64,000 bases of DNA. It comes from Candidatus Latescibacterota bacterium. Its GTDB lineage: Bacteria; Latescibacterota; UBA2968; UBA8231. The position numbers and the translations under genes are program-made. Below the pieces are notes generated by a model, which worked only from the letters and a program-made list of their open reading frames with translations, did not search any database and was not told the origin of the DNA. The DNA lies in assembly GCA_965261395.1 (NCBI GenBank), contig OZ253462.1, positions 3,008,001 through 3,072,000 of the forward strand, in the 5' to 3' direction. Below are positions 44,379 through 58,550 of this stretch, piece by piece; position 1 is the first letter of the stretch; the number at the start of each line of letters is the position of its first letter.

Positions 44379-46556
44379 ATGACCATTCACACGGAAACCT
44401 TTCGCACGGCTGGCGGCGTCGAAGTCAAGCGCCAGACCGAGGAATTGTCCATAGAAAGGCCACTAAAGTTCCTGCTCGAACGGCTCAATACCCACCGGGG
44501 TGCCGTCTTTGCCAGCGGCTACGAGTATCCAGGGCGCTATAGCCGCTGGGACATTGGCTTCGTCGATCCGCCGCTGGAGCTGGTGGCGCGTCAGCGCGCC
44601 TTTGCCTTCCGGGCGCTCAACGCACGCGGCGAGATGCTGCTGGAGACCTTTCGCCGCAGCCTCGCCAAGCACGAGCATGTGATGGAGCTGGAGCTAACCG
44701 ATGGCCAGCTCAAAGGCACAGTGGCCCCCATGCCCGAGTACTTCCCCGAAGAGGAGCGCTCCAAGCAGCCGACGATCTTCAGCGTCCTGCGCGCCCTGGT
44801 GGCACAGATGCGAGCCGAGGGCGAAAATCACTTGGGCTTTTACGGGGCGCTGGGCTACGACCTGGTACTCCAGTTTGAGCCGCTCCAACTGCACCATCCG
44901 CGCCGCGAGGACCGACCCGATCTGCACCTTTTTTTGCCAGACGAACTAGTCGTCGTCGATCACCGCAAGGAGCAGGCGCGGCGTTACCGCTATGAATTTG
45001 CCGCCGACGGGTTGTCAACCGAGGGCATGGAGCGAGGCACGGACGCCGTGCCCTATGTGCGCGGCGCGGCAACCGAGATCTCGTGCGACCACGCCCCCGG
45101 GGAATACGCCGACAAGGTGCGCGAGGTCATCGCCGGTACTGAGCGCGGCGACTTCTTTGAGGTGACGCCGAGCCAAGTGCTCAGCGCTGGCTATGCGGGC
45201 AGCCCGCACATCCTCTTTGAGAATATCCGCCGCAATAGCCCCAGTCCCTATGAATTCTTCATCAACCTCGGCGACGAGTATCTGATCGGTGCTTCACCCG
45301 AGATGTTCGTGCGAGTTAGCGGGTCATTCGTCGAGACTTGTCCGATTGCCGGGACCATCGGCCGCGGCAAAACCGTGATGGAGGACGCCGAGCAGATCCG
45401 CGACTTGCTCAACTCAAAAAAGGACGAGGCCGAGCTGAACATGTGTACGGACGTCGACCGCAACGACAAAGCGCGGATTTGCAAGGAAGGCTCGGTGCGG
45501 GTGGTCGGGCGGCGGATGATCGAAAAGTACTCAAAGGTCTTTCACACCGTGGACCAAGTCGTCGGCGAGCTGAAGGACGACTGCGACGGATTCGACGCCC
45601 TGCTTTCGCATATGTGGGCGGTAACGCTGACCGGCGCGCCCAAACCGGCGGCCATGCAGAAGATCGAGGAACTGGAAAACTCGGCGCGGCGCTGGTACGG
45701 CGGCTGCATCGGCATGCTGATGTTTAGCGGCGAGATCAACACCGGGATCACCATCCGCACCGTACACTTGGAGGACGGCATCGCCCGAGTGCGGGTCGGG
45801 GCGACTCTACTCTGCGACTCGGACCCCGACGCCGAGGAGCGCGAAACTCGGGCCAAGGCCGAGACTTTTATCAACGCGGTGACCGGTGCCGCCGACGCCA
45901 AGAAGAAGAGCACCCAAATCGCGACCACCGGGCAGGGCAAGCGGGTACTCTTCGTCGATAACCGCGACTCCTTCGTGCATACGCTCGGCGATTACGTGCG
46001 GCAGACGGGAGCGGAGGTGGTGACGGTGCGCGCCGCGAGGTCGCGCGACGGCAGCGGCGCGCGGGGCCTGCGCGATCCCCAGCGCGTCTTCGCCGAGTTT
46101 GATCCCGATCTGGTCTTCATCTCGCCGGGGCCAGGCACGCCGAGAGAATTTGGAGTGCCGGAGCTGGTCAACGAGTGCGTACGGCGCGCGCTCCCGGTGT
46201 TCGGCGTGTGTCTGGGATTGCAGGGCATCGTCGAGGCTCTCGGTGGCGAGCTAGGGGTGCTTTCCTACCCGATGCACGGCAAGGAATCGACGATCCGCTG
46301 CACGCCGGAAGGAATTTTTGACGGGTTCCCCGCGGAGTTTGTCGCTGGGCGCTACCATTCGCTCTACGCCGTGCCAGAAAAGTTGCCCGAGTGCTTGCAG
46401 GTCTTGGCGCAGACCGACGATGGGGTCATCATGGCCGTGGAGCATCGCGATTTGCCGATAGCGGCCGTGCAGTTTCACCCCGAGTCGATTTTGACGCTCA
46501 AGGGCGATCTCGGCTTGCGGCTGATCGCCCAAGTAATAGGGAGTTTAGCGCGTTGA
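44379..46556 (+). CDS. trpE: Anthranilate synthase, fused TrpE-TrpG
   Basis: SGYEYPGRYSRWD, PSPYEFFINLG, GASPEMFVRV, TCPIAGT, TLTGAPK; C-terminal GATase (DSFVHTL, GVCLG, QFHPES). Confidence 0.93.
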   Translation: MTIHTETFRTAGGVEVKRQTEELSIERPLKFLLERLNTHRGAVFASGYEYPGRYSRWDIGFVDPPLELVARQRAFAFRALNARGEMLLETFRRSLAKHEHVMELELTDGQLKGTVAPMPEYFPEEERSKQPTIFSVLRALVAQMRAEGENHLGFYGALGYDLVLQFEPLQLHHPRREDRPDLHLFLPDELVVVDHRKEQARRYRYEFAADGLSTEGMERGTDAVPYVRGAATEISCDHAPGEYADKVREVIAGTERGDFFEVTPSQVLSAGYAGSPHILFENIRRNSPSPYEFFINLGDEYLIGASPEMFVRVSGSFVETCPIAGTIGRGKTVMEDAEQIRDLLNSKKDEAELNMCTDVDRNDKARICKEGSVRVVGRRMIEKYSKVFHTVDQVVGELKDDCDGFDALLSHMWAVTLTGAPKPAAMQKIEELENSARRWYGGCIGMLMFSGEINTGITIRTVHLEDGIARVRVGATLLCDSDPDAEERETRAKAETFINAVTGAADAKKKSTQIATTGQGKRVLFVDNRDSFVHTLGDYVRQTGAEVVTVRAARSRDGSGARGLRDPQRVFAEFDPDLVFISPGPGTPREFGVPELVNECVRRALPVFGVCLGLQGIVEALGGELGVLSYPMHGKESTIRCTPEGIFDGFPAEFVAGRYHSLYAVPEKLPECLQVLAQTDDGVIMAVEHRDLPIAAVQFHPESILTLKGDLGLRLIAQVIGSLAR

Positions 46557-46560
46557 AGAC

Positions 46561-47124
46561 ATGTTGCTGATACTTGATAACTACGACTCCTTTACCTACA
46601 ATTTGGTGCATTATTTAGAGGAATTAGGGGCTGCAACCAAGGTCTTGCGCAACGACCAATTGACGGTCGCCGAAGCGGTTGCACTCGCGCCAGAGCGCGT
46701 CGTTATCTCGCCTGGTCCTGGCGGCCCAGATCAAGCTGGAATTTCGTGTGCGCTCGTCGAGCGGTTGGCCGGTGTGATTCCCATTTTGGGCGTGTGCCTA
46801 GGGCACCAAGTTATCGCCCAAGTTTGCGGCGGGCGCATCGTGCGGGCCGGTGAGATCGTCCACGGTCGCGCGACGCCGGTGCAACACGACGGCCGCACGC
46901 TCTTTGCGGGGTTGCCCAACCCGCTCGTCGCCACCCGCTATCACTCGCTGGCCGTGGAGCAGGAGAGTTTGCCTGAGTGCCTCGAAGTATCGGCCACGAG
47001 TGAGGATGGGACGATCATGGGGATTCGGCACCGGCGATGGCCTCTCGAAGGGGTGCAGTTCCATCCCGAATCGATTTTGACCATAGAAGGCAAACACCTA
47101 CTGGCCAATTTTCTTCGCTTATGA
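46561..47124 (+). CDS. Stand-alone glutamine amidotransferase (TrpG/PabA family)
   Basis: DNYDSFTYNL, ISPGPG, GVCLGHQ, RYHSL, GVQFHPES. Confidence 0.93.
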   Translation: MLLILDNYDSFTYNLVHYLEELGAATKVLRNDQLTVAEAVALAPERVVISPGPGGPDQAGISCALVERLAGVIPILGVCLGHQVIAQVCGGRIVRAGEIVHGRATPVQHDGRTLFAGLPNPLVATRYHSLAVEQESLPECLEVSATSEDGTIMGIRHRRWPLEGVQFHPESILTIEGKHLLANFLRL

Positions 47125-47135
47125 GGAGCGCAAGC

Positions 47136-48146
47136 ATGATACAAGAAGCTATAAAAGACCTGATCGCCGGAGCGGACTTGGGCCGCGCTAGGACACGGGC
47201 GGTGATGGAGCAGATTATGAGTGGCCAAGCTACGGACGCTCAGATCGGCGCGTTTCTCGTCGCCCTGCGGATCAAGGGCGAGACCATCGACGAGATCGCC
47301 GGTGGCGCCGAAGCCATGCGTGAGAAAGCCACGCCGATAGTGACGGTGCGCCCCGATCTCATCGACACCTGCGGCACCGGTGGCGATGATTCGGGGACCT
47401 TCAATATCTCTACGACGGTAGCCTTTGTCGCTTGTGGTGCCGGCCTAGCGGTGGCCAAACACGGTGCCCGCTCCATATCGAGCCAGTGCGGCTCGGCGGA
47501 CGTGCTAGCCGCGTTAGGGGTCAACGTCGAAGCCACGCCGGAAAAGGTCGGCGAGTGCATCGACGAAGTCGGCATCGGCTTCCTCTTCGCGGTAGCCTTG
47601 CACGGAGCGATGAAACACGCCATTGGTCCGCGCAGGGAGTTAGCTACCCGCACGGTTTTTAACATCTTGGGGCCGCTGACCAATCCGGCCGGGGCCAAAA
47701 GGCAATTGCTCGGCGTGTTCGACGGCGCGTTGACCGAGGCGCTCGCCGGGGTGCTGCGCGAGTTGGGATCGGAGCGGGCCTTGGTGGTACACGGCTCGGA
47801 CGGGCTGGACGAGATCACGCTGACGGGGCCGACGCAGGTCAGCGAGCTTAGAGACGGGCAGATCAGTACGCGCCAGATCCATCCGGAGGATTTTGGCTTG
47901 CAAGTAGTCTCCGCCGAGGCGCTCAAAGGCGGCGACGCGGACTACAATGCGTGCATCCTGCGCGAGGTACTCGACGGCAGGGAGGGGCCGCAGCGCGACG
48001 TGGTGCTGCTCAACGCGGCGGCGGCGATGGTCGTTGGCGGGCTGGCCGAGGATATAACCGCTGGTCTCGAACTGGCCCGAGCGTCCATCGACTCAGGCAA
48101 GGCACGCCAAGCCCTCGATCGGCTGGTCGAGGTAAGCAACTCCTGA
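47136..48146 (+). CDS. trpD: Anthranilate phosphoribosyltransferase
   Basis: DTCGTGGD, FNIST, AKHG, GSADVL, RTVFNILGPLTNP, DGLDEI. Confidence 0.96.
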   Translation: MIQEAIKDLIAGADLGRARTRAVMEQIMSGQATDAQIGAFLVALRIKGETIDEIAGGAEAMREKATPIVTVRPDLIDTCGTGGDDSGTFNISTTVAFVACGAGLAVAKHGARSISSQCGSADVLAALGVNVEATPEKVGECIDEVGIGFLFAVALHGAMKHAIGPRRELATRTVFNILGPLTNPAGAKRQLLGVFDGALTEALAGVLRELGSERALVVHGSDGLDEITLTGPTQVSELRDGQISTRQIHPEDFGLQVVSAEALKGGDADYNACILREVLDGREGPQRDVVLLNAAAAMVVGGLAEDITAGLELARASIDSGKARQALDRLVEVSNS

Positions 48147-48147
48147 G

Positions 48148-48927
48148 ATGGCGGATATCTTAAGCGAAATAGCCGAGTACAAGCGCGAGTTCGTCGCCGA
48201 CCGCCAGCGTCAGCGCAGTTTGGCCGATGTGCGCGCGCACGCCCGCGACACGCCCGCGCCAGCCGATTTTGCGGGTGCGTTGGCTGCGGACGGGATCGCG
48301 CTGATCGCCGAGGTGAAAAAAGCCTCGCCGTCCAAGGGCGTCATCCGCGCCGACTTCGACCCAGAGTGGATCGCCGATGCGTATGCCGCCAACGGCGCGC
48401 GCTGTCTTTCGGTATTGACGGACGAGGCGTATTTTCAGGGGTGTGATGCTTATGTACAGATGGCTAAAGAGGTTGCGGGCTTGCCGGTGTTGCGCAAGGA
48501 CTTCACCATCGACGAATACCAGCTCTACGAAGCCCGCGTCATCGGTGCCGATGCCATTTTGCTGATCGCAGCACTGATGGACTCCAGCCAGCTCGACGAC
48601 TACCTTGGCCTAGCTGGCGAGTTGGGGTTAGGCGCGCTGGTGGAAGTTCACGACGACGACGAGCTTTTGCGCGCCAAAGTAGCCGGGGCCGGCTTAGTGG
48701 GCATCAACAACCGCGACCTGCGAACTTTTGCGACGACTCTAGAAACCACTTTCGCTCTCTTGCCCCAAGTGCCCAAAGGCGCGGTCGTGGTCAGCGAGAG
48801 CGGAATTGGGGATCGCGGCGATGTGGAGCGGCTTGAGGCTGCGGGCGTCGATGCGATCTTGGTCGGCGAATCCCTGATGCGCGAAGCCGATATCGGGGCT
48901 AAAGTGAGGGAGTTACTAGGCACGTGA
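48148..48927 (+). CDS. trpC: Indole-3-glycerol phosphate synthase
   Basis: IAEVKKASPSKG, LSVLTD, LRKDF, GINNRDL, SESGI. Confidence 0.96.
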   Translation: MADILSEIAEYKREFVADRQRQRSLADVRAHARDTPAPADFAGALAADGIALIAEVKKASPSKGVIRADFDPEWIADAYAANGARCLSVLTDEAYFQGCDAYVQMAKEVAGLPVLRKDFTIDEYQLYEARVIGADAILLIAALMDSSQLDDYLGLAGELGLGALVEVHDDDELLRAKVAGAGLVGINNRDLRTFATTLETTFALLPQVPKGAVVVSESGIGDRGDVERLEAAGVDAILVGESLMREADIGAKVRELLGT

Positions 48928-49907
48928 AAAAACGAGTGTTTTCGGGCATTCAGCCTTCGGGCCATATCCATATCGGCAACTACATCGGGGCCGTCCGCAA
49001 TTGGTTGGCCAACCTAGAGGACCGCGACAACATCTTCTGCGTGGTCGATCAGCACGCGATCACCGGGCCCTACGACCCGGAGGCTTTGCGCCGTGGCACG
49101 CGTGAGGCCGTGGCCCTGTACATCGCCTGCGGCCTCGATCCACAAAAGTGCCACCTCTTCGTGCAGTCGCACATTCCGGCGCACACCGAGTTGGCGTGGC
49201 TTTTGACTTGTATCACGCCCATGGGCTGGCTGGAGCGGATGACTCAGTTCAAGGATCGGGTGGGTGCGCGGCGCGAGCGCGTCGGCACGGGGCTGTTCGT
49301 CTATCCGACGTTGATGGCCGCCGATATCCTGCTCTATCAGGCGCACGAGGTGCCCGTCGGCGACGACCAAAAACAGCACGTGGAACTGACGCGCGACATT
49401 GCCGAGCGCTTCAATCGTCAGTTCGGCGAGGTATTCACCGTGCCCGAGCCGGTCATTCCCACGGTTGGTGCGCGGATCATGGGGCTCGACGATCCGACTG
49501 CGAAAATGTCTAAGTCCGCCGAGGGTCGGTTTCACAGCGTCGGCTTGCTCGACGACCCGGATAAGGTGCGCAAGACGATCATGCGCGCGGTGACGGATTC
49601 GCAGCGGGACATTGTCTTCGATCCGCAGCGCCCCGGGCTTTACAACCTGCTGACGATCTATCAGTCGTTGACCGGCCTAGGGCACGCCGAGATCGAGGCA
49701 CATTTTGCCGGCAAGGGGTACGGAGACTTAAAAAAGGAACTGGCCGAAGTGGTCATCGCCGAGATCGAGCCGATCCAGACTCGCTATCGGGAGTTGACGG
49801 CGGATCCCGCATATATCGACGAGGTGCTCAGGCACAGCGTCGAGCAGTTGCGCCCGATCGCGGACGCGACCATGGACGCGGTCCGTCGGGCCATGGGACA
49901 TCGGTAA
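48924..49907 (+). CDS. trpS: Tryptophanyl-tRNA synthetase
   Basis: SGIQPSG, HIGN, YPTLMAADIL, VGDDQKQH, KMSKS. Confidence 0.97.
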   Translation: MKKRVFSGIQPSGHIHIGNYIGAVRNWLANLEDRDNIFCVVDQHAITGPYDPEALRRGTREAVALYIACGLDPQKCHLFVQSHIPAHTELAWLLTCITPMGWLERMTQFKDRVGARRERVGTGLFVYPTLMAADILLYQAHEVPVGDDQKQHVELTRDIAERFNRQFGEVFTVPEPVIPTVGARIMGLDDPTAKMSKSAEGRFHSVGLLDDPDKVRKTIMRAVTDSQRDIVFDPQRPGLYNLLTIYQSLTGLGHAEIEAHFAGKGYGDLKKELAEVVIAEIEPIQTRYRELTADPAYIDEVLRHSVEQLRPIADATMDAVRRAMGHR

Positions 49908-49917
49908 GGGAGAAACT

Positions 49918-50190
49918 GTGGAACTGAGTGACTGGCGCGAACGCATAGATAATATCGACCATCAACTGATTGATCTGCTCAACGAGCGCATGCAGTGCGC
50001 ACAAGAGGTCGGACGGATTAAAAAGGCTGCGGGAAAACCAATACGCGATCCCGAGCGTGAGCTCGATGTGATCGCCAAGATCAAAGCCTACAACCAAGGA
50101 CTCCAAGGGCTGGTTAAGGACGAGGCCCTAGAGGAACTCTACTGGCTGCTCATCGAACTGACCACCAACTTCGAGATCGAGGAGGATTAG
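49918..50190 (+). CDS. Chorismate mutase (AroQ type)
   Basis: R..ID.ID..LIDLLNER, IK, DPERE. Confidence 0.9.
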   Translation: MELSDWRERIDNIDHQLIDLLNERMQCAQEVGRIKKAAGKPIRDPERELDVIAKIKAYNQGLQGLVKDEALEELYWLLIELTTNFEIEED

Positions 50191-51287
50191 TCTTCTTCCG
50201 GCGGGCAGTCATCGTCGGCGTGGGCCTGATTGGCGGCTCGATAGGCTTGGCGCTCAAGCGCACCGGCTTTGGCGGGCGGCTTGTGGGCGTCAGTCGCCCC
50301 GCAACCATTGCCCGCGCGCTGGAGTTGGGCGTGGTGGACGAGGGCTGGGGTTACGACGAGCTGGAACGCGCGCTTAAAGGGGCCGACCTAGTCTTTATCT
50401 GCACCCCGATCAAGCGAATTCTCACGCTGATTGCAGAGGTGGGTCAGCTCGCCGAGCCGGGGACGTTGGTTACCGATGTGGGGAGCACCAAGCGGCGCAT
50501 CGTCGCGGCGGCCCAAGCCCATTTCAGCGACGAGGTGTACTTTGTCGGCGGCCACCCGATGGCCGGCTCCGAGAAGGCGGGCGTGGCCGCGGCCGATCCG
50601 TTCCTCTTCCAGAATGCGATCTATATTTTGGTCCCCGATCAGCAGGTGCCAGCCGACCGCTACCAAGCATTGACCGCGCTCTTGCGGCAGCTTGGAGCGC
50701 GGGTGATGGAACTAGACGCTGGGGCACACGACCGGGCGGTCGCCGCTATTAGCCACCTGCCGCAGATGTTGGCGACCTCGCTGGTGGGCATGGTCGGGCG
50801 GCTAAATGCCGAGCGCGATCACTTCCTGCCGCTGGCTGCTGGTGGTTTCCGCGATTTGACGCGGATTGCCTCCAGCCCGTTCGCGCCGGTGTGGGAGGAT
50901 ATCTGCGCGACCAATGCCGACGAGATCCGCGCGATGATTGACCGCTACATTGCCGCGCTCGCGGATGTGAGAGAGCGGCTGGAGGCAGCGGAGCTAAAGG
51001 CGGATTTCGATTTTGCCAATGAGATTCGGGGTTCCATCCCGAGGGATTCAAAGGGGTTTATCCACGTGCTGCACGAGATCTTGGTGCTCGCCGAGGACCG
51101 GCCGGGCGTCATCGCCGAGATCGGGCAGGCGCTGGGCGCGGAAGGGGTAAACATCAACGATATTGAGGTGATGAAGGTGCGCGAGGGCGAAGGAGGGACG
51201 CTGCGGCTGGGGTTTGACAGCGCGGAGAGCGCGGAGCACGCGCTGGGAATTTTGGCGCGGCTCGGGTATGTGGCACGGAGACCCTAG
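50190..51287 (+). CDS. tyrA: Prephenate/arogenate dehydrogenase with a C-terminal ACT domain; true start unresolved
   Basis: AVIVGVGLIGGS, TDVGSTK, GGHPMAGSE, HD...ISHLP, GFRDLTRIASS, DRPGVI. Confidence 0.9.
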   Translation, partial: VFFRRAVIVGVGLIGGSIGLALKRTGFGGRLVGVSRPATIARALELGVVDEGWGYDELERALKGADLVFICTPIKRILTLIAEVGQLAEPGTLVTDVGSTKRRIVAAAQAHFSDEVYFVGGHPMAGSEKAGVAAADPFLFQNAIYILVPDQQVPADRYQALTALLRQLGARVMELDAGAHDRAVAAISHLPQMLATSLVGMVGRLNAERDHFLPLAAGGFRDLTRIASSPFAPVWEDICATNADEIRAMIDRYIAALADVRERLEAAELKADFDFANEIRGSIPRDSKGFIHVLHEILVLAEDRPGVIAEIGQALGAEGVNINDIEVMKVREGEGGTLRLGFDSAESAEHALGILARLGYVARRP

Positions 51288-51290
51288 GCG

Positions 51291-52514
51291 ATGGAAGCAA
51301 TCGTAAGCCCAGCCAAGAAAATTGCCGGGCAAGTCTCGGTGCCCGGCGAGCGGGAGCCAGCCGCGCGCGCGCTCGTGTTGGCCGCGCTGAGCGAAGGAGA
51401 TAGCGTTGTCCGCAACGCGCCCATTGCCGCTGGCCGCGTGGTCGCTTTGTTGCGCGAGCTAGGTGTTGACATTGCCGAGCGCGCAGGCACCCATGAGGTG
51501 CGCGGCGTTGGGTTGCTGGGGTTTCAGCGCGTAGAGGCTCCACTCGACCTAGAAGGATTGGGGGATACCGTGCTGTTGTTGCTCCCCCTGCTCGCCGGAC
51601 AAACATTTCGTTCGCGGGTGAAGTTGGGAATGGAAGCCGAGCGGTGTCGGCCACTGCTCGACCTGCTGGCTCAGCTCGGGTTCGCCGTCGAACAGGAGAG
51701 TGCGGGCACCTTTGTAACCGGGGGTCAGCAGGCCAAAGGGTTCGTCCTCTCCGAGGTACCGCCGACCGACGCCCTAGCGCTGGGCTCGATGGTGGCCGCG
51801 CTCTTTGCCGAGGGGACGACTGCGCTGAAAGTCGGCAGCCGCGTGGAGCGGTTGTTGCGCGGGCGCGGGGTTGTCGTCGAGCGGCGCAAACTGCTGTCGG
51901 TAGAGGGCGGGCAGGCGTTACAGGCGACTGACGTAGAGGTGCCTGGGCAGCTCGCGTTGGCTTATCCGCTCATGGGGGCCGCGCTGTGCCGCAAGAGGTC
52001 GGAGCTAACCATCAGGCGCGTGGCCATTCGCCCTGGGCAGCGGGCCTTCTTGGATTTGCTGCGGCAGATTGGGGCACAGATCGCCGCGGAAGATCGCGGT
52101 CAAAACGAGTGCGATTTGCACGTGAGCGCCAGCCCGTTAAAGGCCACGCGCGTGGCTGGGGGGCGGGCAGCCAAAGTCGTCGACCAGATCGCGCTGCTAG
52201 CAGTCTTGACGACTCAGGCGACGGGGACGACGGTCATCCGCGATGTCGAAGGTGTGCCGCACGTGGAGCATTTGTGCGCCGCGCTGCGCTCGCTCGGTGC
52301 GCGGATTGGCCAGTTCCCGGAGGGGCTCGTCGTCAAAGGCGGCTTTCCGCTCCAGGGCGGTCAGCTCGACGGCAAGGGCGATCCCGGTTTAACCATGGCT
52401 TTTGCCGTGGCCGGGCTGTTGGCCGAAGGGGAGCTGACCATCCAAGGAAGCGAGTGCCTGACGCCCGTCTGGCCCGATTTTTTTAAGATCGTACAATCTA
52501 TTCGAGGAGATTGA
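51291..52514 (+). CDS. EPSP synthase (AroA)-fold protein with degenerate catalytic motifs
   Basis: Position in the aro cluster and overall pattern (G.V.VPG...RALVLAAL.EG; MAFAVAGL; WPDFF), but KS, GNSGT, SAQ, KExDR and DHR are absent. Confidence 0.75.
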   Translation: MEAIVSPAKKIAGQVSVPGEREPAARALVLAALSEGDSVVRNAPIAAGRVVALLRELGVDIAERAGTHEVRGVGLLGFQRVEAPLDLEGLGDTVLLLLPLLAGQTFRSRVKLGMEAERCRPLLDLLAQLGFAVEQESAGTFVTGGQQAKGFVLSEVPPTDALALGSMVAALFAEGTTALKVGSRVERLLRGRGVVVERRKLLSVEGGQALQATDVEVPGQLALAYPLMGAALCRKRSELTIRRVAIRPGQRAFLDLLRQIGAQIAAEDRGQNECDLHVSASPLKATRVAGGRAAKVVDQIALLAVLTTQATGTTVIRDVEGVPHVEHLCAALRSLGARIGQFPEGLVVKGGFPLQGGQLDGKGDPGLTMAFAVAGLLAEGELTIQGSECLTPVWPDFFKIVQSIRGD

Positions 52515-52516
52515 AT

Positions 52517-52669
52517 ATGAGAGGAATCTTTCGGCTTTTTGTGTGCTCGGCCGTGATGTTGTGCGGCGGCCTACTCGCCATTCGCCTGCTCTACGGAAAA
52601 TCGTGGCGCGAATCCTTCGAGATTGCCAACTGCTTCATTGAGGATTTGATTGAGGATTTGTTGGAGTGA
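52517..52669 (+). CDS. Small 50-aa single-TM protein, absent from the supplied ORF track
   Basis: SD GAGGAG at 52504; fills the gap exactly and overlaps the aroE start (GTGA); MRGIFRLFVCSAVMLCGGLLAIRLLYGKSWRESFEIANCFIEDLIEDLLE. Confidence 0.65.
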   Translation: MRGIFRLFVCSAVMLCGGLLAIRLLYGKSWRESFEIANCFIEDLIEDLLE

Positions 52670-53514
52670 TTTCCGGGACGACGCGGGTGCTCGGCGTCAT
52701 CGGCGATCCGGTCGCACACACGGCGTCGCCGGCTATGCACAACGCCGCGCTTAGGGCGCTGAATCTCAACTATGTGTACGCGGCGTTCCGCGTCGCTCCC
52801 GCAGCCTTGCCCCAAGCCCTAGCCGGAATGCGCGCGCTCGGCATGGTCGGACTGAATGTAACCGTGCCGCACAAACAGGGCGTCATGGCGCATCTCGACG
52901 AGATTTCCGCAGAGGCCCAAAGCATTGGAGCGGTCAATACTATTGCCAACCGCGATGGCCGGCTCGTTGGGTACAACACCGACGCCTTTGGGATCGTCCA
53001 AAGTCTCAAGGCCGATGGCGGCTTGGACCCGCTGCCGTCCAAGGTCGCGCTCCTCGGTGCAGGCGGCGCGGCGCGGGCCGTGCTCTACGCGCTGCTGGCG
53101 CGGGACGAGGTGGAGGAGGTGCTGCTGCTCAACCGCACGGTGGAAAAGGCCGCAGCCCTCGCTGGCGACCTCGACAGTGCTGGCAAGGTGCGGGTTGGGT
53201 CGCTGGCAGAGACCGGGCCGATTGGGGATGCTGGTTTGCTCATCAACGCCACGGCGCTGGGGATGCACCCCCGCGAAGACGTTTCGCCGCTGGCGGACCC
53301 GTCGTGCCTGCACGAGCGCATGCTGGTTGCCGACATTGTGTACAACCCGTTGGAGACCGTGCTCATGCGGCAGGCTGCTGCCGCTGGCGCGCCCGCGATT
53401 AACGGCTTGGGTATGCTCGCTTGGCAGGGAGCGCGCTCGTTTGAGATCTGGACGGGTGTCGAGCCGCCAGTCGAGGCGATGATTGCGGCCGCACTGGAGC
53501 ATTTCCCCGATTAG
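52666..53514 (+). CDS. aroE: Shikimate dehydrogenase
   Basis: HTASPAMHN, NVTVPHK, GAVNT, GYNTD, GAGGAAR, NRT, DIVYNP, GLGML. Confidence 0.95.
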   Translation: MISGTTRVLGVIGDPVAHTASPAMHNAALRALNLNYVYAAFRVAPAALPQALAGMRALGMVGLNVTVPHKQGVMAHLDEISAEAQSIGAVNTIANRDGRLVGYNTDAFGIVQSLKADGGLDPLPSKVALLGAGGAARAVLYALLARDEVEEVLLLNRTVEKAAALAGDLDSAGKVRVGSLAETGPIGDAGLLINATALGMHPREDVSPLADPSCLHERMLVADIVYNPLETVLMRQAAAAGAPAINGLGMLAWQGARSFEIWTGVEPPVEAMIAAALEHFPD

Positions 53515-53561
53515 ACCGTTGGTTGGATGGACGGAATAACGACAAACAACATAGATAACGC

Positions 53562-55277
53562 ATGATAACCGAATTATTAGAAACGCGCATCAGCGCGGCA
53601 CTGGCCCGAGCGGGCGCACCCGAGGATTCCCCGGCTCTCGTCGGTCCGGCCACTCGCCCGGAGTTCGGCGACTACCAAGCCAACGGCGTGATGGCCGCGG
53701 CCAAGAAGCTGAAGACCAACCCCCGCGTGCTCGCCACCCAAGTCGTGGAGGAACTGGATCTGGAGGACATGGCCGCGTCCGTAGATATCGCCGGCCCGGG
53801 CTTTATCAACATCCAGCTCAAAGGCGAGTGGCTGGCCGCTCAGCTAGGCAATGTGCTGACCGATCCGCGACTCGGCGTGCCCAAGGCCGCGCCGCAAAAG
53901 GTCGTAATCGACTACTCGCATCCCAACTTGGCCAAGGAAATGCACATCGGCCATCTGCGCAGCACGGTCATCGGCGACGCCATCGCCCGCGTCCTCAAAT
54001 TCTCGGGCCACGAGGTCGTACGCCACAATCACGTGGGCGACTGGGGGACGCAGTTTGGGATGCTCATCGCCCACTTGGACCAACTCGCGGACCCGGCCAC
54101 GGAATTGGCCGATCTAGAAATATTCTACCAATCGGCGCGTCAGCGCTTTGACCAGGACGCAGCCTTCGCCGACCTGTCGCGGGAATACGTGGTCAAGCTG
54201 CAAGGCGGCGATCCGCACGTGCTGCAGATGTGGCAGCAGTTCATCGACGAGTCGCTCGTCCACGGCCAGCGCGTGTACTCTACGCTAGGGGTCGGTCTTG
54301 AGCCCGAAGACGTGCGGGGCGAGAGCGCGTACAACGACGACTTACCTCGCGTGGTCGAGGATTTGCGAGCCAAGGGCCTGCTGGTGGAGTCCAACGGCGC
54401 GCAGTGCGTCTTTTTGGAGGAATTCAAAAACAAGGACGGCCAGATCACGCCGGTGATCGTGCAGAAGTCGGACGGCGGCTACCTCTATGCGACGAGCGAC
54501 CTCGCGGCCGTGCGCTATCGGGCCGGTGCGCTTGCTGCCGACCGCATCCTCTACATCGTCGATGCGCGCCAGTCTCTTCACTTGCAGCAGGTTTTCGCGG
54601 TGGCACGGGCGGCTGGGTACGCGCCCGCGACGACCGCTTTGGAGCACCACGCTTTTGGCGCGATTCTCGGCGCGGACAACCGGCCGTTCAGGACGCGAGT
54701 CGGCGGCACGGTCAAGCTGATGGATGTGTTGGAGGAAGGCGTGGAGCGGGCCTTTGCCCAAGTGAGCGAGAAAAACCCCGCGTTGGACGAGGCCGAACGG
54801 CGGCAGATCGCCCGCGTGGTTGGCATTGGCAGCGTCAAGTACATGGAGTTGTCGTTCAACCGCACCTCGGACTACGTGTTCGACTGGGACAAGATGCTGG
54901 CCCTCGACGGCAACACCGCTCCGTACATGCTCTACTCGTATGCTCGCATCAAGAGCATGTTTCGCCGCGCCGCCGTGGATGAAAGCGCGCTCGGCGGCGC
55001 GATAACGCTCGGCGAAAGGGCCGAGAGTGTACTCGCCATCAAGCTGTTGCAGTTTCCCGAGGTGGTCGCGGCCGTGGCCCACCAGTGCTATCCGCACTTG
55101 CTCTGTAACTATCTCTACGAGTTGTCCGACGCCTTTATGAAGTTCTACGAGCAGTGCCCGGTCCTCCGCGCGGACGAGCCGTTGCGCACGAGTCGGCTGC
55201 TGCTGGCGCTGCTGACCGCGCGCATCCTGCGCCAGGGTCTCGACCTGCTCGGCATTGAGACCCTTGAGAGAATGTGA
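53562..55277 (+). CDS. argS: Arginyl-tRNA synthetase
   Basis: FGDYQAN, AGPGFIN, PNLAKEMHIGHLRS, GDWGTQFG, GNTAPY. Confidence 0.97.
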   Translation: MITELLETRISAALARAGAPEDSPALVGPATRPEFGDYQANGVMAAAKKLKTNPRVLATQVVEELDLEDMAASVDIAGPGFINIQLKGEWLAAQLGNVLTDPRLGVPKAAPQKVVIDYSHPNLAKEMHIGHLRSTVIGDAIARVLKFSGHEVVRHNHVGDWGTQFGMLIAHLDQLADPATELADLEIFYQSARQRFDQDAAFADLSREYVVKLQGGDPHVLQMWQQFIDESLVHGQRVYSTLGVGLEPEDVRGESAYNDDLPRVVEDLRAKGLLVESNGAQCVFLEEFKNKDGQITPVIVQKSDGGYLYATSDLAAVRYRAGALAADRILYIVDARQSLHLQQVFAVARAAGYAPATTALEHHAFGAILGADNRPFRTRVGGTVKLMDVLEEGVERAFAQVSEKNPALDEAERRQIARVVGIGSVKYMELSFNRTSDYVFDWDKMLALDGNTAPYMLYSYARIKSMFRRAAVDESALGGAITLGERAESVLAIKLLQFPEVVAAVAHQCYPHLLCNYLYELSDAFMKFYEQCPVLRADEPLRTSRLLLALLTARILRQGLDLLGIETLERM

Positions 55278-55287
55278 GACTTGGGCC

Positions 55288-55821
55288 ATGACGAGGGGGC
55301 CGGTATTTCTGACTGGTTTTATGGGCGTGGGCAAGACTCGGGTCGGGCGCATTCTGGCGCGGCAGCTAGGGCGTTGCTTCTTGGACACCGACCGGATGGT
55401 TGAGCAGCGCGCCGGCAAGTCCATTGCGGAGATTTTCGCCGACGAAGGCGAGGCGCACTTCCGCCAGCTAGAGCGCGACTGCGTCCTCGAAACTTGTCAG
55501 CGCCTAGATGCCGTAGTGGCCTTGGGCGGTGGGGCGATCACCCGCGCCGACAACGTCGAGGCCGTGCGCTGCGCCGGCGTCTTGGTGTGCCTCAAGGCCG
55601 ACGTGGATACGATTTTTGCCCGAATCAGTCGGCGCACCAACCGGCCTCTGCTCGCCGGATTGGAGCCGAGGGAACAGCGCGCCAAAATAGAATCCCTGCT
55701 CCGCGCGCGCGCTCCTTTCTACGACCAAGCCCACATCGAACTGTACACCACGCAGACGCAGATGCCTGAGGATACGGCCGAGCAACTCCGCGACTTGCTG
55801 GAGAGCTATGCAAAGAATTGA
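55288..55821 (+). CDS. aroK: Shikimate kinase
   Basis: GFMGVGKT, DTD, GEAHFR, LGGG, RPLL, RAPFY. Confidence 0.95.
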   Translation: MTRGPVFLTGFMGVGKTRVGRILARQLGRCFLDTDRMVEQRAGKSIAEIFADEGEAHFRQLERDCVLETCQRLDAVVALGGGAITRADNVEAVRCAGVLVCLKADVDTIFARISRRTNRPLLAGLEPREQRAKIESLLRARAPFYDQAHIELYTTQTQMPEDTAEQLRDLLESYAKN

Positions 55822-56911
55822 CTTAGACATCACAGGGGCTGCATACCCCATCTTCGTCGGCCACGACATTCTCGGGGAACTGGGGCCGCGCTGCCGCGAC
55901 TTGGCCTTGGGCCGGCAGGTCGCGCTGGTGAGCGACGAGATCGTGGCGGCGCGCTATCTGCAACCTGCGGCCGCGAGCTTGCGCGCCGCTGGATTCGAGG
56001 TGTTGGAGATTGTCTATGCCGGGGGCGAGAGTGCCAAGAACTTGCTCGGGGCCGAGGGGATTTTCGCGCAGATGATCGCGGCCGAGTTCGACCGCGGCGC
56101 TTGGGTGGTGGCCCTCGGTGGGGGCGTAGTCGGCGACATGGCGGGCTTTGTGGCCTCTACTTATTTGCGCGGCGTGCCCTATGTGCAGGTGCCTACGACC
56201 ATTGTCTCGCAGGTAGATTCGAGCATCGGCGGCAAGACTGGGGTCAACCACGCGCTGGGCAAAAATCTGATCGGCACCTTTCACCAGCCGCGCTTGGTCT
56301 TGGCCGACACCAACGCGCTGCACTCGCTGCCGAGGCGGGAGCGGGTCGCGGGCATGGCCGAGGTGGTCAAACACGGGCTGATCCGCGACGCCGCGCTCTT
56401 CGCCTTTTTGGAGGAGCACTTGGAGGAAGTCGTGGATATGGCGCTAGCGCCGGAGACCTTGGACTGGCTGATCGGCCGCAATGTCGAGATCAAGGCCGAG
56501 GTGGTGGCTGCCGACGAGAAGGAGCACGGCTTGCGGGCCATCCTCAATTACGGGCACACCATTGGGCACGCGATTGAGGCAGCCACGGACTATGGCCGCT
56601 ACCGGCACGGGGAGGCGATAATTTTTGGCTTGATTGCCGCGGGCGAAATCGCCTGCCGCGAGGGTTTGTGGCCTGAAGCGGAAAGGCAGCGGCAGGACGC
56701 GTTGCTGGCGAGGTTGGGGGTGCCCGGAGGATTGGCCGAGGTGGATACGGAGCGGATTTTGGTCTGTGCCAAGGCCGACAAGAAGCGAGTGGATGGGCGG
56801 CTGCGGTTCGTGCTGGGTCGGCGGATCGGGGAGGTGGAGGTCGTGGAAGGAATAACCGATGCGATGGTGCGGTCGGCCATTGAATACGCGCAGCGCTTTT
56901 GCGAGGGATGA
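55808..56911 (+). CDS. aroB: 3-dehydroquinate synthase
   Basis: GGGVVGDMAGF, VPTT, DSSIGGKTG, KNLIG, EVVK, LNYGHTIGH, HGEA. Confidence 0.96.
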   Translation: MQRIDLDITGAAYPIFVGHDILGELGPRCRDLALGRQVALVSDEIVAARYLQPAAASLRAAGFEVLEIVYAGGESAKNLLGAEGIFAQMIAAEFDRGAWVVALGGGVVGDMAGFVASTYLRGVPYVQVPTTIVSQVDSSIGGKTGVNHALGKNLIGTFHQPRLVLADTNALHSLPRRERVAGMAEVVKHGLIRDAALFAFLEEHLEEVVDMALAPETLDWLIGRNVEIKAEVVAADEKEHGLRAILNYGHTIGHAIEAATDYGRYRHGEAIIFGLIAAGEIACREGLWPEAERQRQDALLARLGVPGGLAEVDTERILVCAKADKKRVDGRLRFVLGRRIGEVEVVEGITDAMVRSAIEYAQRFCEG

Positions 56912-56916
56912 GATAA

Positions 56917-58236
56917 ATGAGTGAAAACCAGCCTCACAAAGTTCACCTAGTCAGCTTGGGGTGCCCGAAAAATACGGTCGATTCCGAGCGGATGCTGGGG
57001 CTTTTACAAGGCCATGCCTATCAGATGACGGACGTGCCGGAAGAAGCGGACGTGGTGGTGGTCAATACCTGCGGCTTTATCGAGCCGGCCAAAGAGGAAT
57101 CCCTCGCCGCGATTATGGACGCGCATCGGCTCAAACAAGAAGGTCAGTGCGAGGGAGTGATTGTCACGGGGTGTCTATCGACGCGCTACTACGAAGAGCT
57201 CGCGCAGGAGTTGGTGGAGGCCGACAAGCTGTTGACGATTGCCGACGAGGCCGACATCGTCCGCCATGTTGACGACGTGTTGGGCGTCCAGCGGCCCGGG
57301 TACTTGGCCAGCTTGCCGCGGACCTCGCTGACGCCCAAGCACTGGGCGTACCTGCGCATATCGGATGGCTGCGATCATAAATGCGCCTTTTGCGCCATTC
57401 CCGCCATTCGCGGGCGGCACGTGAGCGAGCCGGTCGAACAGCTCGTGGCCGAGGCCGAGCGGCTGGCTACGGCTGGGGTGCGGGAACTGGTCTTGGTCTC
57501 GCAGGACTCGGTGCGCTACGGGGCCGATCTCTACGGCCGGCCGCAGCTCGTGCGCCTCTTACAAGCGCTCGCCGAGGTGGAGGGCATTGAGTGGATGCGC
57601 TTGATGTACACCTATCCGGCGTTCTGGACCGAGGAACTGATCGACTTCTACGCCACGTACGACAAGATGTGTCTGTACATCGACATGCCGCTGCAACACA
57701 TCTCCGACCCAGTGCTCAAGCGCATGAAGCGGGCGACGACGCGCCAAAAGACACTCGATTTGTTGGCGCAACTGCGGGAGCGGCTGCCGGGGGCTGGGCT
57801 GCGCTCGACGTTCATCGTCGGTTTCCCCGGCGAGACCGAAGCCGATTTTGCCGCCTTGCTGGAGTTCGTGGCCGAGACGCGCTTTGACTACGCGACCGGC
57901 TTTCTCTACTCACCGGAAGATGGGACTTCGGCGTATGAGCTTGGCGATCCGGTCGCCGAGGAGGTCAAGCAGGAGCGCTACAGCCGCCTGACGCAACTAC
58001 AGGAGCGCGTGGGCACGGAGAAAAACGACGAGCTCGTCGGCACGCGGCAGCAGGTCTTGGTCGATGCGCGCGAGGGAGAGATGTGCTATGGGCGGATGGA
58101 GCGCGATGCCCCGGAAATCGACGGCCAAGTCGTCATCGCCGAGGGCACGCCTCCGGTGGGTTCTTTCGTCGAAGTGGAGATCACCGCAGCCGCGCCCTAC
58201 GAGCTGAGTGCTAAGGTGGTGGGAGAACCGCGTTGA
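56917..58236 (+). CDS. rimO: Ribosomal protein S12 methylthiotransferase
   Basis: SLGCPKNTVDSE, NTCGFI, CDHKCAFC radical SAM motif, APEIDG TRAM domain. Confidence 0.95.
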   Translation: MSENQPHKVHLVSLGCPKNTVDSERMLGLLQGHAYQMTDVPEEADVVVVNTCGFIEPAKEESLAAIMDAHRLKQEGQCEGVIVTGCLSTRYYEELAQELVEADKLLTIADEADIVRHVDDVLGVQRPGYLASLPRTSLTPKHWAYLRISDGCDHKCAFCAIPAIRGRHVSEPVEQLVAEAERLATAGVRELVLVSQDSVRYGADLYGRPQLVRLLQALAEVEGIEWMRLMYTYPAFWTEELIDFYATYDKMCLYIDMPLQHISDPVLKRMKRATTRQKTLDLLAQLRERLPGAGLRSTFIVGFPGETEADFAALLEFVAETRFDYATGFLYSPEDGTSAYELGDPVAEEVKQERYSRLTQLQERVGTEKNDELVGTRQQVLVDAREGEMCYGRMERDAPEIDGQVVIAEGTPPVGSFVEVEITAAAPYELSAKVVGEPR

Positions 58237-58550
58237 ACAAGGTGAAGCCGCGCGACATCGCCGTGGACGGCCGGGCCGGCGAATTGGTCATCGCGTGGAG
58301 CGATGGCCGCGAGAGCCGCTACGACTTGGAGGGGTTGCGGCGCGAGTGTCCTTGCGCCCACTGCCGGGAATTGCGCGATACGAGCGAGGGCGGGTTGACG
58401 CTCTTGCAGCCCGAGGCGGTGTCGGCCACGGCCGAGGTGCTGGGGGTTAGCTACGTCGGGCGCTACGGCATTCGCATTGAATGGGCCGATGGGCACGATC
58501 ACGGCATTTATACGTTTGAGTTTTTTCGCGCCATAGACGCGGGCGGATGA
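58233..58550 (+). CDS. DUF971 / GBBH-like N-terminal Zn-binding domain protein
   Basis: WSDG, LRRECPCAHC, VGRYGIRIEWADGHDHGIYTF. Confidence 0.88.
   Translation: MNKVKPRDIAVDGRAGELVIAWSDGRESRYDLEGLRRECPCAHCRELRDTSEGGLTLLQPEAVSATAEVLGVSYVGRYGIRIEWADGHDHGIYTFEFFRAIDAGG

Follow-up and report, generated by a model that had tools for sequence, protein, structure and literature searches.

A catalytically degenerate EPSP synthase homologue retained in an aromatic amino-acid operon of Latescibacterota

The locus described here raises the question of why a gene for a shikimate-pathway enzyme should stay intact once the residues needed for catalysis have gone. It lies in a stretch of 64,000 nucleotides (the window) from the genome of a Candidatus Latescibacterota bacterium (GenBank assembly GCA_965261395.1, contig OZ253462.1, positions 3,008,001 to 3,072,000 of the forward strand). 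There, an open reading frame (ORF) at 51291..52514 on the + strand encodes a protein of 407 amino acids that takes the place of AroA, 5-enolpyruvylshikimate-3-phosphate (EPSP) synthase or EPSPS, between TyrA and a small membrane protein. A preliminary description, made from the sequence alone, had read this ORF as a catalytically gutted aroA and had offered several explanations: a pseudoenzyme repurposed as a scaffold, as a ligand sensor or as a partner of a true AroA encoded elsewhere, or an enzyme with a new substrate. We conclude that the product, here termed pseudo-AroA, is very probably dead for EPSP synthesis, still under selection and displaced by a second AroA.

An EPSP synthase homologue without its active site

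Pseudo-AroA appears to be a catalytically degenerate, class-II-derived homologue of EPSP synthase. Its ORF is full-length and uninterrupted in the tyrA-aroA slot, as had been reported, and matches PF00275 end to end (1.7e-39, 136 bits, profile positions 3-415 of 417). However, the protein scores well below the cut-offs of the specific models, with 148.1 bits against 287.25 for the aroA equivalog TIGR01356 and 182.6 against 902 for PRK14806, and its 57 bits for TIGR01072 (murA, cut-off 392.7) likewise leave it outside MurA. The nearest solved structures found with phmmer are class II AroAs (3rmt, 4e-46; 3roi, 5e-38).

Twenty functional positions of Escherichia coli AroA were mapped onto pseudo-AroA by MAFFT columns, with a HMMER alignment to 3rmt as a second view. 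These are the residues that we take to contact shikimate 3-phosphate (S3P) and phosphoenolpyruvate (PEP): K22, S23, R27, N94, G96, T97, R124, S169, S170, Q171, S197, Y200, D313, N336, K340, E341, R344, H385, R386 and K411. Pseudo-AroA is identical at three of the twenty (R27, G96 and D313, in E. coli numbering). The ‘RP’ motif at R124 is paired with R120-P121 of pseudo-AroA by the HMMER alignment but not by MAFFT, and the equivalent of R120 in relatives is Q, P or Q. The preliminary description had allowed for one retained Arg and one retained Asp; both are there, but G96 has to be added to them and R124 is possible on the HMMER view.

Motif by motif, its readings hold. By both HMMER and MAFFT, PGEREPAAR (residues 18-26; 51342..51368, + strand) replaces PGDKSISHR, with the Lys and Ser gone and the Arg retained, EGLGDT (residues 88-93; 51552..51569, + strand) replaces the GNSGTT loop and DPG (residues 364-366; 52380..52388, + strand) replaces DHR. 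The SxQ position reads T-D-A. The KExxR motif is missing through a deletion of nine residues between V322 and P323 (52251..52262, + strand), seen in the family alignment, which removes the loop equivalent to LRxKExDR; this deletion is confined to the close relatives of the window copy, and ‘LRxGxxD’ is still present at the site in a subgroup of ~61% identity and in more distant dead copies. The alignment to the EPSP synthase family that had been suggested as a check did not, therefore, recover the catalytic residues. What pseudo-AroA does retain is 27 of the 77 columns that are ≥90% conserved among 105 canonical class II sequences, and these are mostly Gly, Pro or hydrophobic. The combination of homology to an active family with loss of essential catalytic residues supports the view that pseudo-AroA is a pseudoenzyme.

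The same pattern extends across its family. A whole-library search, which used 50%-identity cluster representatives, recovered ~21 clusters of full-length dead copies (P0020, P0122-P0145), with P0020 89% identical to the window copy and the others 37-53% identical; below these in the ranking came canonical class II AroAs (28-37% identity) and some further forms that are partly degenerate. Mapped active-site positions are unconserved among these dead copies (position 22, for example, is R, Q, A, L, K, F, V, T, G or P) and vary even within the genus, where position 21 is R or Q, position 92 is D or N and positions 159-161 read TDA or AAE. Thirty-eight polar columns that are ≥90% invariant in canonical class II sequences (0.96 pairwise identity) fall to 0.30 in the dead family, against a background of 0.35, while 36 invariant Gly, Pro or hydrophobic columns stay at 0.59. 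The dead family thus seems to have preserved its fold without preserving its pocket. Residues conserved specifically in this family are R251, R258, T286, R287, E313 and G340, all in the C-terminal domain.

Another group of EPSPS homologues, of ~456-464 residues, comprises P0147, P0151, P0167 and P0181. Of these, P0147 and P0151 were examined and have a charged insert of ~40 residues; the active site of P0147 is partly degenerate (PGDRSISHQ, GNSDTT and DHL, with KETDR kept) and that of P0151 fully so. This group may represent intermediate stages or an independent loss.

Loss of the site has not been followed by loss of the gene. A full-length orthologue, 60-89% identical, occurs in 23 of the 24 other genomes of the same genus, the genome without one being 58% complete, and all 23 orthologues are intact. 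Internal stops flagged in three matches (G021, G003 and G008) were rejected as the ends of ORFs of 411, 400 and 404 amino acids. Pairwise ratios of non-synonymous to synonymous substitution (dN/dS; Nei-Gojobori, NG86) were calculated for 14 genomes of the ~85%-identity group. Dead AroA gave 0.233 (dN 0.073, dS 0.322), compared with 0.086 for tyrA, 0.105 for aroE, 0.086 for trpS, 0.097 for argS and 0.226 for chorismate mutase; the true AroA, described below, gave 0.110 in 12 genomes. This ratio hardly varies along dead AroA, with each segment at 0.21-0.24. Dead AroA is clearly under purifying selection, relaxed ~2.5-fold, and is not decaying, which bears out the earlier suggestion that the gene is still selected.

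Predicted structures agree with this. An AlphaFold2 model built on a family alignment of 25 rows has a pLDDT (predicted local distance difference test) of 94.3 and a pTM (predicted TM-score) of 0.90. Its best superposition is on the open, unliganded chain 3roi_B (TM-score 0.84; Foldseek E 4e-37), and the top 50 Foldseek matches are all EPSPS or MurA. The intact frame of all 23 orthologues, the dN/dS and this fold support a pseudoenzyme rather than a broken gene.

A natural truncation narrows down the part of the protein under selection. Families of the phylum carry labels of the form f1, f2 and so on here; in f2 and f3, two sister families of the same class, the gene between tyrA and the microprotein encodes only 215-227 amino acids. 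By alignment, an N-terminal strand is joined directly to residues ~215-407, with the middle domain cleanly excised, and what is left corresponds exactly to the EPSPS domain that is built from both termini. The half form has a dN/dS of 0.136 (12 distinct sequences), against 0.140 for aroE and 0.115 for tyrA (n = 4) in f2/f3 genomes. Its model is a single compact domain (pLDDT 94.5) that superposes on one EPSPS domain with a TM-score of 0.80-0.82 and a root-mean-square deviation of 2.4-2.7 Å. A protein of one domain cannot form the interdomain active site; the selected function must therefore reside in that domain, and the function of dead AroA would map to the EPSPS domain made of the N-terminal strand and the C-terminal half.

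The working AroA and the history of the operon copy

A second, canonical aroA had been proposed as something to look for in the genome, and it was found. The source genome, a single contig of 6.55 Mb, holds three PF00275 genes: a canonical AroA, a MurA (L002) and pseudo-AroA. The canonical copy is of class I type, lies 2.4 Mb from pseudo-AroA (G000:C1:5501866-5503095), carries KS..R, GNSGT, SSQ, ETDR and DHR and keeps 17 of the 20 mapped positions. These residues allow the separate class-I-type AroA to be taken as the enzyme that makes EPSP in this lineage.

In a quick, unrooted maximum-likelihood tree of 52 sequences, the stand-alone AroAs of Latescibacterota families f1, f2, f4 and f13 cluster with the class I AroA of E. 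coli (support 99). The dead copies make a separate group (support 92) next to the class II clade, which has the active operon AroAs of f5 and f9 as its basal members.

These active operon copies occupy the slot of pseudo-AroA. In f5, f7 and f9, an active class II AroA (PGDKSISHR...DHR) lies directly before the same microprotein (L081, L098 and L080, respectively), and in f7 it also follows tyrA, in the order tyrA, aroA, microprotein. Unlike pseudo-AroA, the operon AroA of these families keeps both PGDKSISHR and DHR and is the only AroA of its genome: all four genomes checked (G043, G047, G049 and G050, from f5, f7 and, twice, f9) have just that AroA and a MurA-type gene. A stand-alone AroA is present in addition to the dead copy in the window genome and in both f10 genomes checked (G051 and G054). 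Because genomes with an active operon copy have a single AroA and those with a dead copy have an additional stand-alone one, the distribution, in a small sample of related genomes, fits a history in which the operon AroA was displaced by a second AroA and then lost its site, while the protein was kept.

Two of the loci with an active operon AroA have further features of their own. At L098:1801-1950 (G047, f7), only a 49-residue C-terminal aroE-like fragment is open after the active AroA and the microprotein; aroE may be truncated in that genome, or the contig may be faulty. At L080:5417-6246 (G050, f9), where tyrA is not adjacent, two small ORFs 5′ of the active operon aroA resemble, by eye, a HEPN/nucleotidyltransferase pair.

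The membrane microprotein and its operon

Pseudo-aroA is followed by an ORF for a membrane microprotein of 50 amino acids (52517..52669, + strand), made up of a hydrophobic helix with a GG motif and a conserved SWRES..IA..F..DLL tail, whose frame and residues are conserved across the phylum. The preliminary description had noted tight coupling to a 50-residue membrane protein; the protein and its length are real, and its start is better placed at ATG 52517 than at TTG 52511, given a Shine-Dalgarno-like hexamer, GAGGAG, 7 nt 5′ of that ATG (52504..52509, + strand) and the equivalent ATG start of every relative. Gaps in this part of the operon are minimal, at 3 nt from the tyrA stop (51287) to the ATG of pseudo-aroA and 2 nt from the pseudo-aroA stop to the ATG of the microprotein, and the microprotein TGA (52667-52669) overlaps the GTG start of aroE at 52666 (GTGA). 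The microprotein is thus likely to be translationally coupled on both sides.

Relatives of the microprotein have 46-53 amino acids and the same layout, a GG-containing hydrophobic helix and a strongly conserved tail. An alignment of 12 rows from four families has 16 invariant columns: M1, L7, G17, G18, I22, R23, Y26, S29, W30, E32, S33, I36, A37, F40, D43 and L44. In the window, an in-frame 12-nt tandem duplication (ATTGAGGATTTG x2; 52637..52660, + strand) adds IEDL to the tail. It is common to the nearest relatives (50-residue forms, 92-96% identity) and absent from more distant relatives, as well as from all four sets of RNA-library contigs described below. The microprotein has a dN/dS of 0.30 within the window's group and of 0.10 within f2.

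A six-frame profile search of 168 genomes of the phylum found the microprotein in 145 of them, with two matches in three genomes and one in the others, and did not find it in families f8, f11, f12 and f14. A pattern scan of 185,579 species genomes gave 80 microprotein loci, all from metagenome-assembled genomes titled Latescibacterota or Latescibacteria or, for some, Gemmatimonadetes, Gemmatimonadaceae or ‘bacterium’. At every one of the 80, which are the best matches to the microprotein alignment and over-represent the window's class, the gene ending just upstream is of AroA type; by motif and by eye, 59 of these are full-length dead copies (among them one that a contig end cuts and three whose ORFs were called too long), 19 half-size copies and two active ones. 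The microprotein matched no Pfam or NCBIfam family, and a look-up in the ESM Atlas gave a best score of 0.84, below the useful range, and no family; its homologues in public sets are named ‘hypothetical protein’. Apparent fusions, in frames of 470-881 codons around the microprotein, were rejected as long open frames in high-GC DNA that cover two genes in different frames. Prediction of a complex between dead AroA and the microprotein scored 0.00 in both runs, which gives no verdict and is not evidence either way.

These genes belong to an aromatic amino-acid string on the + strand of the window: trpG, trpD, trpC, trpS, chorismate mutase, tyrA, pseudo-aroA, the microprotein ORF, aroE, argS, aroK, aroB and rimO. 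Directly 5′ of pseudo-aroA, tyrA (50220..51287, + strand; PF02153, PF20463, PF01842) encodes prephenate dehydrogenase with a C-terminal ACT domain, and aroE (52666..53514, + strand; PF08501, PF18317, PF01488) encodes shikimate dehydrogenase. From trpG to rimO the string is packed on one strand, without convincing terminators; a promoter and terminator scan of 46000-58500 gave counts at the level of shuffled sequence and was uninformative. As called from TTG 55255, the aroK ORF shares 23 nt (55255-55277) with the 3′ end of argS.

At one related locus (L032:5453-6636), an inserted cassette of two genes lies between the microprotein ORF and aroE. Its ORFs, named by eye, are presumably DarT-like and then macrodomain-like. 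The insertion parts aroE from the operon, and the microprotein remains beside dead aroA.

Proposed role, rival explanations and known systems

Taken as a whole, the explanation that we judge probable is that the ORF is a relic of the ancestral class II aroA of a tyrA-aroA-microprotein-aroE operon, retained for a non-catalytic role. The operon copy would have lost its S3P/PEP site and been kept as a folded protein by purifying selection, surviving through a second function, that of a structural or protein-interaction module. As partners we tentatively put forward the products of the translationally coupled genes, most likely TyrA from the upstream side and/or the microprotein and AroE from the downstream side. 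The non-catalytic role probably dates back to the active ancestor, given that active operon AroAs of other families have the microprotein behind them as well. A fuller version, speculative and on balance unlikely, is that EPSPS domain 1 of dead AroA and the microprotein of 46-50 residues make up an adaptor that anchors or organises TyrA and AroE in a membrane shikimate/tyrosine metabolon; this would have been a moonlighting role of the active ancestor and become the sole job of the protein after the class I takeover.

Several observations weigh against this account or limit how far it can be taken. In the quick tree, a weakly supported branch (35) puts the f4 dead copy in the wrong place and, as the tree is unrooted, we make no claim from it about the donor or about whether the gain of class I AroA or the loss of the site came first. 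The active operon aroA is adjacent to tyrA in f7, but not in f5 and f9. Selection on dead AroA is ~2.5 times weaker than on the neighbouring enzymes, and part of its sequence may drift; the window's own clade has deleted the LRxGxxD loop that other dead copies conserve and has substituted E313, D323 and E341, three positions with ≥90% conservation among dead copies. Contigs from four RNA libraries of close relatives, in two studies (90-99% identity), extend from dead aroA through the microprotein ORF into aroE. As contigs cannot prove transcription and DNA may be present in libraries of this kind, transcription of dead aroA is only hinted at. Gene order and coupling are what suggest a scaffold role and its partner, and a search for longer proteins found no fused form of the dead type, giving only three canonical TyrA-AroA fusions of 28-30% identity, which is weak evidence. 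The microprotein itself does not always accompany AroA: the f13 copy precedes aroE with no AroA there, and the f6 copy (L084, G044, in genomes of ~2 Mb with AroA elsewhere) is isolated from both aroA and aroE, so that the microprotein may have a role not strictly tied to shikimate genes.

Other explanations have to be set beside retention for a non-catalytic role. A new small-molecule function, whether as an enzyme with a different substrate or as an allosteric sensor using the EPSPS cleft or a new pocket, would suit an intact fold predicted in its open form, the retention of R26, D298, D364 and perhaps R120, and the few family-specific polar residues that are conserved in the C-terminal domain (R251, R258, T286 and R287). 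Even so, we think it improbable. The ligand sensor or new enzyme envisaged by the preliminary description is disfavoured at the old site because the former active-site columns show no conservation above background; within the genus itself the former binding positions are free to vary, the f2/f3 proteins have a single domain and no cleft and yet are under selection as strong as that on aroE, and the window copy has itself replaced several residues conserved in the dead family. The opposite possibility, of a functionless relic on its way out, whose frame persists for translational coupling and operon integrity or because misfolded products are costly, is in our view decidedly improbable. It would account for a dN/dS 2-2.7 times that of neighbouring genes, for progressive erosion (loop deletion in the window's clade, loss of a whole domain in f2/f3) and for tight start and stop overlaps that make the frame matter for downstream genes. 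Coupling by itself, however, would not explain a dN/dS as low as 0.23 (0.14 for the half form), nor why structural Gly, Pro and hydrophobic columns keep an identity of 0.59 among clusters that share only 28-53% identity with the window copy, nor why the models reach a pLDDT of 94. Such decay is also at odds with a clean excision that leaves a complete fold unit instead of a random stump, and with the dead form found, in no case frameshifted, at 78 of 80 microprotein loci.

EPSP synthases act as monomers, which counts against a further reading, related to the earlier suggestion of a partner for the true AroA, in which the dead copy is a ‘prozyme’ that modulates the active class I AroA by hetero-association. 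The two proteins coexist in every dead-copy genome examined, and dead paralogues that activate live counterparts are known, an example being the AdoMetDC prozyme (PMC5201418). However, the two genes are 2.4 Mb apart and of different EPSPS classes, and the dead copy is coupled instead to tyrA, the microprotein and aroE; the partnership found no support here and we regard it as highly improbable.

These findings matter beyond this locus. Some pipelines (as in names from JGI, the Joint Genome Institute) label the dead family ‘3-phosphoshikimate 1-carboxyvinyltransferase’, a label that would mislead pathway reconstruction and predictions for the glyphosate class, because the working enzyme is the class-I-type copy elsewhere. 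A single phylum holds the active operon AroA, the full-length dead copy and the single-domain remnant, which together form a natural series, with measurable selection, on why dead enzymes persist. The phylum-specific microprotein between aroA and aroE is a new family and a handle for finding the partner of dead AroA.

Full-text literature searches returned no description of a conserved, dead, stand-alone AroA, and nothing relevant on dead EPSPS or on the shikimate pathway of Latescibacteria. Among known proteins, pseudo-AroA is homologous over its full length to class II EPSP synthase (EC 2.5.1.19; Bacillus halodurans 3RMT, Coxiella burnetii 3ROI/3SLH), with which it shares the two-domain fold, and it shares its slot after tyrA with the aroA of many bacteria; unlike that enzyme, it keeps three of the 20 positions, falls below the equivalog cut-off and is not the only AroA of its genome. 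In the fungal pentafunctional AROM protein, the EPSPS domain is a structural hub that holds the other shikimate-pathway enzymes. That domain is active and covalently fused, whereas for dead AroA a hub-like role is only proposed; if the metabolon adaptor were real, it would be a bacterial counterpart of enzyme-as-scaffold arrangements such as AROM, made from a dead enzyme and a microprotein.

The nearest printed case that our searches found is the EPSPS remnant of Pseudomonas syringae. There, a TyrA-AroF(EPSPS) fusion lost ~200 residues of its EPSPS domain upon the lateral gain of a non-congruent, stand-alone EPSPS gene, and the authors suggest that the remnant might become a regulatory domain (Song et al., 2005, BMC Biol 3:13, PMC1173090); in one of the paper's figure legends, some P. 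syringae gene boxes have the outline that marks pseudogene status. In both cases, an EPSPS copy beside TyrA seems to have lost catalysis once a second, non-congruent EPSPS gene had appeared, and the loss of ~200 residues in P. syringae parallels the f2/f3 half form. The P. syringae remnant, however, is a fused domain of one species, while the dead AroA of Latescibacterota is a stand-alone gene, full length in the window, conserved across five sampled families, under measured purifying selection and paired with a microprotein.

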